DNA of 64,000 nucleotides from Raja brachyura (taxonomy: Eukaryota). The stretch spans positions 15,872,001 through 15,936,000 of the forward strand of contig OY740790.1 in NCBI GenBank assembly GCA_963514005.1. The letters run 5' to 3'. Positions within the stretch are counted from its first letter, which is position 1. Each line of letters opens with the position of its first letter. The notes under the pieces were generated by a model that was given only the letters and a program-made list of their open reading frames with translations, had not been told where the DNA came from and searched no databases. A program made the position numbers and the translations under genes. Shown here piece by piece: positions 49,451 to 50,818 of this stretch.

Positions 49451-49622
49451 TTAAACCAAGAATTGGTACTAAGTCGGGAGGAGGATCTGCAGGGAGAGGT
49501 CCAATGGAATTATCAGTGATAGAAGGAGAAGATATGACGTTGCCTTGTGAAGTCCATAGCTTTCCACCTCCCATTATCCGCTGGGCGAAAAATATGCAGC
49601 TTATCTCTCCTTTCTCACCAAG
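49451..49622 (+). CDS. HMCN1: HMCN1 exon L (172 nt, phase 1-2)
   Basis: tccag|TTAAACCA...CCAAG|gtaact; VKPRIGTKSGGGSAGRGPMELSVIEGEDMTLPCEVHSFPPPIIRWAKNMQLISPFSPR. Confidence 0.94.
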
Positions 49623-50022
49623 GTAACTCAAGATTAAACATGGATCCGCCTGAGAGCATTTCTCTCATTTCACTATTACCTGTAAGTGTGCTATGCACAG
49701 CTTTTGGATAATACTAGGCACATAAATTGTGAGGGGGCATACTGTGCAAATAAAGGTTGGGGTTATATTTCACTTGAGTAAATGTGGTTATTATTGTCAT
49801 CACTGATTTGTAACCTTTAAGTTATTTACAGATTCAGATAAAGTTTAGTTTCCATTGCTCGTTGTTTTTCTTTGTTCTTCATAATGCTTTAATTGCACAA
49901 TAGAATTACTGCGTTCACATTTGCAACCTATGTATGTACCTCCTCTCAATATATGCCAACATAAGTTGAATAGCTTATGTTTTCGCAACATGGAAGATGA
50001 ACCGATCTAAACATGAGTTCTT

Positions 50023-50158
50023 CTTCTTCTTTCGTGTGGCGTGCACAGCATACAGTCGTAGGACAACTTGTTCTATTTGACCTTCTGTTTGAGCACGTCG
50101 AGTTGATTGCATTAGTCGAAACAGGGCGGACCTCATGAAGGTTGCAACCTTCCACCCC
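50023..50158 (-). mobile_element. Short (136 bp) non-autonomous retroposon with (GAA)n tail and 10-11 bp TSD, probably Ingi/Vingi- or RTE-related
   Basis: Direct repeat ATGAGTTCTT at 50013-50022 and 50159-50168. The minus strand starts GGGGTGG and ends ...GCCACACGAAAGAAGAAG. No tRNA A/B boxes. Family assignment is inference. Confidence 0.8.
50105..50158 (-). ncRNA. Candidate minimal HDV-like (CPEB3-type) self-cleaving ribozyme
   Basis: GGGGUGG-AA-GGUUGCA-ACC-UUCAUGA-GGU-CCGCCCU-GU-UUCGA-CUAA-UGCAAUC: P1 7 bp with G1.U wobble, P2 7 bp, P3 3 bp, 7-nt L3, J4/2 CUAA, in HDV nested double-pseudoknot order. Confidence 0.78.
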
Positions 50159-50818
50159 ATGAGTTCTTAATATTTTAAACTATTTCAAATTTAAAATGAA
50201 GTAACGTGGAGCTTTTGCAAATTTTTTGTAAACATTGATCACAAGCAACAAGCTGCGCTTGATTTCTCTGATAGTTTAATTTCCTTGTTGTTCAGATGCT
50301 TACACTTTTTTTTTTATTTTCTAATTTCTTCCTGACTGAAATTATAAGATTCTATAATTGTTTTCATATGGATAGCAAATCCTTCAGCTCACCAGATTAT
50401 TGTGATTGGAGTATATCACAGGTTTCACCCCTATTTTTCCCCATGTTTGGTTGTCTTTCTTGTCCTTTCGTTTTCAATTGTTCAGTAGGATGATGATGGA
50501 AATGTTGTCCCCTCTACTTTTCCTGGGCACACTGAATGATGTGTAATTATTTTCCAATATGTTCTTGTTTACTTCTTGCATTGGATTACCATTTAAAAAA
50601 TAAAGAAACAAAAGAGAAGTCTAGTAAAACTCAAAAAATTGAAAAGTGGAGTCATTACCAACCAAACTGGGACAGTAGTTAGGATCTTAAATTGTTGAAC
50701 TTAATTTTGGTACCTGTCCCCTGTCTATATTGAAATATTTAAAAATATTTGTTCTACACATAAATGTTGATTTTAGCATGAACGATGATTTTTAATTGGA
50801 ATATATTTTGTATTCTAG

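Follow-up and report, generated by a model that had tools for sequence, protein, structure and literature searches.

The window, the whole 64-kb stretch of DNA that was analysed, contains a single copy of a 136-nt element on its minus strand. It is a defunct member of a family of non-autonomous Vingi-type retroposons that arose by internal deletion. Most probably, it is a Vingi-derived SIDE whose head is predicted to fold into a P4-less HDV-like ribozyme, which would have cut the source RNAs exactly before G1. The reading is carried by the bipartite origin of the element, its copy number, the 5′ boundary of its copies at G1 and the covariation of the fold across families.

Locus, copy number and 5′ boundary

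The original prediction placed a ribozyme-headed retroposon between TSDs of 10-11 bp. Direct reading of the minus strand finds its helices, L3 and J4/2 all in place, and the TSD, ATGAGTTCTT, is 10 bp long and lies next to G1 (Table 1). The upstream exon is read from the plus strand and codes for an I-set Ig segment, and a putative RNA contig stops at its donor, 49622 (run X2, of which contigs only were used and which is RNA by guess). The element thus lies antisense within an intron, as had been proposed, and would not cut the host pre-mRNA. The host gene is presumably HMCN1, as in the original prediction. The same insertion is present in organism E, where a contig enters the element by 66 nt, and probably also in organism D; with a flank divergence of ~1-2%, this marks it as old. 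Many CR1-like and other interspersed repeats (families D3, D4, D6 and D12) occur across 5688-63600 of the window.

Table 1. Positions of the element, its parts and the neighbouring exon in the window.
Feature	Position	Strand	Basis
Host-gene exon, 3′ part, I-set Ig segment; fixes the orientation of the intron	49500..49622	+	domain match, contig end
TSD, left copy	50013..50022	+	sequence
Non-autonomous internally deleted Vingi-type retroposon, 136 nt	50023..50158	-	sequence, family and parent comparison
Parent-derived 3′ segment: final codons, a stop codon that has decayed in this copy, 3′ UTR and (GAA)n tail	50023..50066	-	parent comparison
Junction, ~19 nt; in typical copies, its terminal part pairs with the 3′ segment (7-bp hairpin)	50067..50085	-	parent comparison, folding
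5′ segment, derived from nt 1-73 of Vingi-type family D	50086..50158	-	parent comparison
P4-less HDV-like ribozyme fold, 54 nt; predicted cut 5′ of G1 = 50158	50105..50158	-	descriptor match
P1 5′ strand, pairs with 50123-50129; wobbles G1.U36, U5.G32	50152..50158	-	sequence, descriptor
P2 5′ strand, pairs with 50105-50111; A11G gives competing hairpin nt 7-22	50143..50149	-	folding
P3-L3-P3′; U20, C22, G25 of L3 kept; C24U, U26A private	50130..50142	-	copy alignment
G37-U38 (P1.1 partner) and 5-nt loop in place of P4	50116..50122	-	descriptor
J4/2 C44-U-A-A; putative catalytic C44 = 50115	50112..50115	-	copy alignment
AUG at J4/2-P2′ junction; in parent LINE in frame with endonuclease	50110..50112	-	parent comparison
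TSD, right copy, abutting G1	50159..50168	+	sequence

The element belongs to a large family. A DNA search returned 1,066 candidates, and the 40 that were scored all span nt 1-3 to 135-136; the 39 other than the window copy are 93-95% identical to it. Exact patterns were counted 3,810 times for the head and 4,127 times for the tail genome-wide, with 0 for the reversed-pattern controls. Rough estimates are ~23,000-25,000 copies by capture-recapture (15/100 overlap among the places listed) and up to ~40,000 copies from six copies met by chance in 401 kb of sequence that had been retrieved for other purposes. The predicted retroposon family therefore has at least ~7,000 members, and likely 2-4 x 10^4. 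It consists of two main subfamilies, of 136 nt (5.6% from the column majority) and 138 nt (8.4%), and of less frequent derivatives whose junctions differ (L174, L227 and L187); all of these keep the whole head. Single loci show other rearrangements: one insertion was multiplied at least 12 times by tandem segmental duplication (L190-L201; G000:C1 14.57-14.95 Mb), and internal inversion of the head, or inverted element pieces in the flanks, is found at L250, L180/L181 and L238. One short copy (L118:802-937) lies nested, with a TSD, inside a member of the parent LINE family.

For the 5′ boundary, 90 loci were taken from the 100 tail matches listed; removal of 12 segmental duplicates left 78 loci anchored at the 3′ end. 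Among these, 71 begin within 2 nt of G1 (64 at G1, 4 at nt 2 and 3 at nt 3). Of the other seven, one is aligned from nt 14, one has an internal deletion and five are headless, one of them a truncated parent. No common sequence was found 5′ of G1 in the 78 loci. The 5′ ends thus stack as originally proposed, and copies extending well beyond G1 were not seen. Contig ends pile up at the same place: loose ends at 50158/50159 are found in three DNA-type runs from three organisms (X5, 101+92; X7, 97+65; X8, 99+84; best rows only), with unrelated flanks (agreement 0.33-0.35).

TSDs were found in 61 of the 73 headed copies, with a length of 7-17 bp and a mode of 11-12 bp. They lie directly before G1 in 33 copies, overlap nt 1 in 15 and are placed otherwise in 13, so that 48/61 abut or share G1. 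The base before G1, mostly the last TSD base, is T in 41 copies, C in 15, G in 11 and A in 6 (n = 73). This excess of T suggests a preference of second-strand nicking or of microhomology, and a templated U-1 may possibly account for part of it.

Bipartite origin from a Vingi-type LINE

The element is composed of nt 1-73 of a Vingi-type LINE of ~3.1 kb with a single ORF, a junction of ~19 nt and the last ~44 nt of the same LINE. The original prediction had described it as SINE-like, a ribozyme followed by a LINE-recognition tail of ~80 nt; this layout has to be replaced by the tripartite one, and the proposed lack of a Pol III head was borne out. As both ends are the ends of one Vingi-type LINE, the element is a SIDE rather than a SINE with a new head.

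The parent was reached by a PF14529 search, which led to the 3.1-kb single-ORF LINE at L071 and from there to six related families (A-F). The top PF14529 matches (25 loci, L031-L055) were discarded as parent, since they belong to another LINE family and lack the element's ends. This abundant young family with two ORFs, which gave the strongest PF14529 scores, is presumably I/Nimb-like. Families A, B, C, E and F were likewise rejected as direct parent, because their heads and tails differ from the element. About 50 candidates were obtained for the 5′ region of family D; compared with natural copies of this family, the element is identical at 63/73 positions of its 5′ end and at 37/44 of its 3′ end. 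One parent copy of ~3.1 kb (L157) carries both ends of the element, and APE and RT domains (PF14529 and PF00078) were found in parent copies with both ends over ~3.1 kb (L157, L152 and L118). The parent AUG is in frame with the endonuclease.

An autonomous LINE sharing both ends had been anticipated; family D corresponds to it, in broken copies. No intact parent ORF was found in 20 loci or among 150 scored RT matches, and all copies examined are broken. RNase H gave no match at E≤0.1 in five C-terminal fragments of decayed copies, where the decay lowers the sensitivity. By architecture and size (single ORF, APE and RT, ~3.1 kb), the parent fits the Vingi clade.

Beyond an 8-nt word, the junction shows no match to the parent loci above chance. 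Its end is an inverted copy of the 3′ segment, with which it forms a 7-bp hairpin. This suggests that the junction arose by fold-back during the deletion.

The small size and high copy number of the element, and its lack of a TTTT run, would suit a SINE transcribed by Pol III, with a head that resembles the ribozyme fold by mimicry. No tRNA was found in the element, the best A-box and 11-nt B-box matches have three mismatches each, no tRNA, 5S or 7SL head was seen, and the head is collinear with the LINE 5′ end. The Pol III reading is largely refuted, and we regard it as highly improbable.

Two further features were noticed in parent copies. An ORF resembling a ferritin retrocopy (PF00210, E 1e-35) is inserted in one of them (L152:2652-3233), and in six others (L162, L165, L167, L169, L170 and L171), the 5′ and 3′ parts are opposed, as in twin-priming inversions.

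Ribozyme fold of the head

The 54-nt head is predicted to form a P4-less HDV-like ribozyme that cuts before G1. P1, P2, P3, a 7-nt L3, the GU and the CUAA follow each other in the HDV order that had been read from the sequence, in a double pseudoknot that includes P1.1. P4 is shrunk, as proposed, to the 5 nt between G37-U38 and C44. The window copy holds all HDV-like core residues: G1, U20, G25, C22-G37, the catalytic C and the R-A in J4/2. An HDV-like descriptor, written after the element was seen and thus partly fitted to it, matches the 64-kb window once, precisely at 50158, and none of 200 dinucleotide shuffles; with a looser descriptor, the window again gave a single match, against none in 30 mononucleotide shuffles. 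In Rfam, the HDV and CPEB3 models (RF00094, RF00622 and RF02682) gave no match to the element even at E≤10. The nested MFE fold is ordinary (z -0.67); the P2 pseudoknot lies outside the scoring of both methods. The missing Rfam match and the unremarkable MFE would be expected of a chance fold within a repeat. This explanation has a negligible probability in view of the shuffles and is ruled out by the covariation across families described below.

Within the short family, the strict descriptor is passed by 22/73 sampled heads, the core pattern is intact in 38/71 sampled copies, and C44 is kept in 69/71. Only three head positions vary in more than a quarter of the 71 copies: nt 8 (J1/2), nt 45 (N of J4/2) and nt 32 (U.G/U-A). 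The frequent variants at all three fit the fold, which is weak support, since decay after insertion is neutral. Subfamily variants occur at 3/54 head positions vs. 6/50 downstream, a weak contrast, and no two-sided pair changes were found within the short family itself (71 copies).

The genome contains at least six Vingi-type families (L071:1858, L098, L102/L121, L115:749, L108:827), and in five of them (A, B, D, E and F) descriptor-positive HDV-like heads, differing in sequence, are located at the 5′ boundary. The looser descriptor is passed by 3/6 loci of family A, 4/4 of B, 0/2 of C, 2/5 of D, 1/4 of E, 2/2 of F and 3/3 of the short family; it was failed by 11/21 loci of A, B, D, E and F. 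Counted by eye from the best copies, and with a descriptor that itself selects for pairing, two-sided changes are found in 12/18 pair columns across these families: P1 4/7, P2 6/7 and P3 1/3, plus P1.1 (C22-G37 to U22-A37). The covariation expected in P1, P2 and P3 is thus present, with two terminal P2 pairs mismatched in the best family copies. In L116, a different G-rich segment, without an Rfam match, lies 5′ of the endonuclease match; by eye, it resembles an RTE-type leader.

The stacking at G1 is also expected from an internal promoter with a +1 start. The head could be mainly such a Pol II promoter, starting at G1, with a ribozyme fold that is inherited, slow or dispensable. In the related L1Tc/ingi elements, Pr77 serves as promoter and as ribozyme, and Kojima 2018, as far as its available text goes, anticipates that bipartite LINEs are transcribed by Pol II. 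However, five families of different primary sequence keep the pairing, each starting at the G1 of P1, which weakens this explanation, since in a promoter the sequence itself would be conserved and not its base pairing. We consider it unlikely; a dual role of the head as promoter and ribozyme is possible.

P4 is missing in family D only, with 5 nt between G37-U38 and C44 vs. 33-46 nt in families A, B, E and F. The first AUG of families A, B and D spans the boundary between J4/2 and P2′: its A is the final base of J4/2, and its U and G open P2′. It is in frame with the endonuclease (AUG at this junction in L071, L073, L083, L090, L095, L098 and L155); families E and F have no AUG there. The embedded AUG, the reduction of P4 to a mere 5-nt loop and the cap-like protection that a review attributes to the R2 ribozyme fold are what one would expect if the fold had lost catalysis along with P4 and had been retained for cap-independent translation, for protection of the 5′ end or for recognition by the RT. 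Yet short elements need no translation, and C44 and the whole core are kept in the independent derivatives L174, L227 and L187; moreover, P4-less ribozymes cleave in vitro. Such a non-catalytic role is unlikely, somewhat less probable than the promoter, and self-cleavage before G1 is the favoured function of the head.

The window copy itself is probably an attenuated ribozyme. The majority of the short family has A11, C24 and U26, which are changed here to A11G, C24U and U26A. The two L3 differences from CPEB3 in the original prediction are real, but they are private to this copy; the family majority, UUCACGU, is the Rfam CPEB3 L3. The third change, A11G, was absent from that prediction and creates a competing hairpin over nt 7-22 (-6.9 kcal/mol vs. 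-0.2 in a typical copy), with a pairing probability of 0.56 vs. 0.01 in the nested model. P2 and P3 would therefore be blocked, although by folding, flanking sequence can misfold a typical copy as well. The U20/G25 reverse wobble, called crucial in the available part of PMC6326823, keeps both bases here, and the accessible text of the CPEB3 mutational-scan literature gives no values for C24U or U26A. With two L3 changes and the competing hairpin, the suspected attenuation of cleavage becomes likely. Each of the three private changes (window 50133-50148) improves a local palindrome, which is formed either within nt 7-22 or between L3 and the upstream TSD; the changes may be templated mutations.

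Mobilization, known systems and the CPEB3 ribozyme

By analogy with R2 and L1Tc, source copies would have been co-transcribed by Pol II as read-through within longer host transcripts, and their RNA would have cleaved itself directly before G1. The parent APE-RT protein would then bind the 3′ UTR/(GAA)n, and insertion would occur by target-primed reverse transcription with TSDs of 7-17 bp. That most copies are full length would be accounted for by the shortness of the element together with the folding of its 5′ end.

SIDEs with ribozyme heads are known, and the element would be a Vingi-type, P4-less, vertebrate version of them. In the available parts of the sources, R2 SIDEs carry ribozyme heads (PMC3414825), NARTc, RIME and SIDER are SIDE-class elements and NARTco/SIDER ribozymes cleave (PMC4035085), and Vingi-1_EE derivatives are bipartite (PMC5786205). 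Like these, the element joins a 5′ end with an HDV-like ribozyme fold to a parent 3′ end, has TSDs and would be mobilized in trans. It differs from them by its Vingi-type parent, outside the six ribozyme-bearing clades of Kojima 2018, by its size of only 136 nt, by the lack of P4 and by its dispersal through a vertebrate genome in thousands to tens of thousands of copies. The text of Kojima 2018, as available, lets Vingi make bipartite elements but places it outside these clades, never mentions CPEB3 and leaves open why Vingi makes bipartite elements; ribozyme heads would explain this for Vingi, as for RTE, Ingi and R2.

The compact single ORF with APE and RT, without RNase H found, and the ~3.1 kb of the parent match Vingi LINEs as described in PMC13708176 and PMC5786205, where Vingi-2_Gav has 3,128 nt. 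The parent is placed by this description, and the available sections of both papers mention no ribozyme for Vingi. No report of a Vingi ribozyme was found in the accessible text of the literature searched.

Minimal HDV-like/theta ribozymes, which are active without P4 (PMC10879173, available part), share with the element the short L4 and J1/2 and a J4/2 that begins with cytosine. Their sources are gut phages and metagenomes, in which they often neighbour tRNAs, whereas the element is a vertebrate retroposon and its P1.1 is C-G plus U.U, as in CPEB3. According to the same part of the source, that search covered human, mouse and protist genomes, and its matches outside phages were in bacteria only. 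If the present reading is true, minimal HDV-like ribozymes, known from phages and metagenomes, have a eukaryotic home and function. The thousands of intronic copies offer a natural test of activity in vivo, through sense-strand depletion. Vingi UTRs serve gene-writing platforms, so that a 5′ UTR which cleaves itself and contains the start codon would, if true, be of practical importance.

The CPEB3 ribozyme (RF00622) has the same helix lengths and numbering as the element through G37, including G1.U36, and the L3 of the short-family majority. The element differs in the sequence of P1, P2 and P3, in the lack of P4, in its mobile-element context and in having no Rfam match. Family F and the published 5′ end of Vingi-2_Gav are much closer to CPEB3 than the element is. 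Rfam HDV-like matches below threshold were obtained in families E and F, and family F heads match RF00622 below cut-off (E 0.045 at L108:827-920 and E 0.41 at L113:773-866) and share its P2. For the gharial Vingi-2_Gav, nt 2-74 (PMC5786205 supplement) agree by eye with the Rfam CPEB3 consensus at 45/47 comparable positions, which are all but 19 P4-region positions hidden in the Rfam output: 34/36 from nt 2 to G37 and 11/11 in J4/2-P2′.

From this sequence agreement, the CPEB3 ribozyme and the Vingi 5′ end are very likely homologous, and a common origin of the element's fold and the mammalian ribozyme is likely. The CPEB3 ribozyme is said to have no relative outside mammals; the Vingi match would be the outgroup that studies of it call missing. 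The direction would be from Vingi to CPEB3, by domestication. In its broadest form, the proposal is that the Vingi clade carries 5′ HDV-like ribozymes, that in one lineage the ribozyme was reduced to a P4-less form of 54 nt that is active, and that this lineage gave rise to tens of thousands of ribozyme-headed hitch-hikers within the genome of a vertebrate, and that the mammalian CPEB3 ribozyme is a domesticated Vingi 5′ end; we would give this proposal as a whole an even chance. The 5′ segment of SINE2-1_AMi, like that of Vingi-2_Gav, is nearly identical to the CPEB3 ribozyme.
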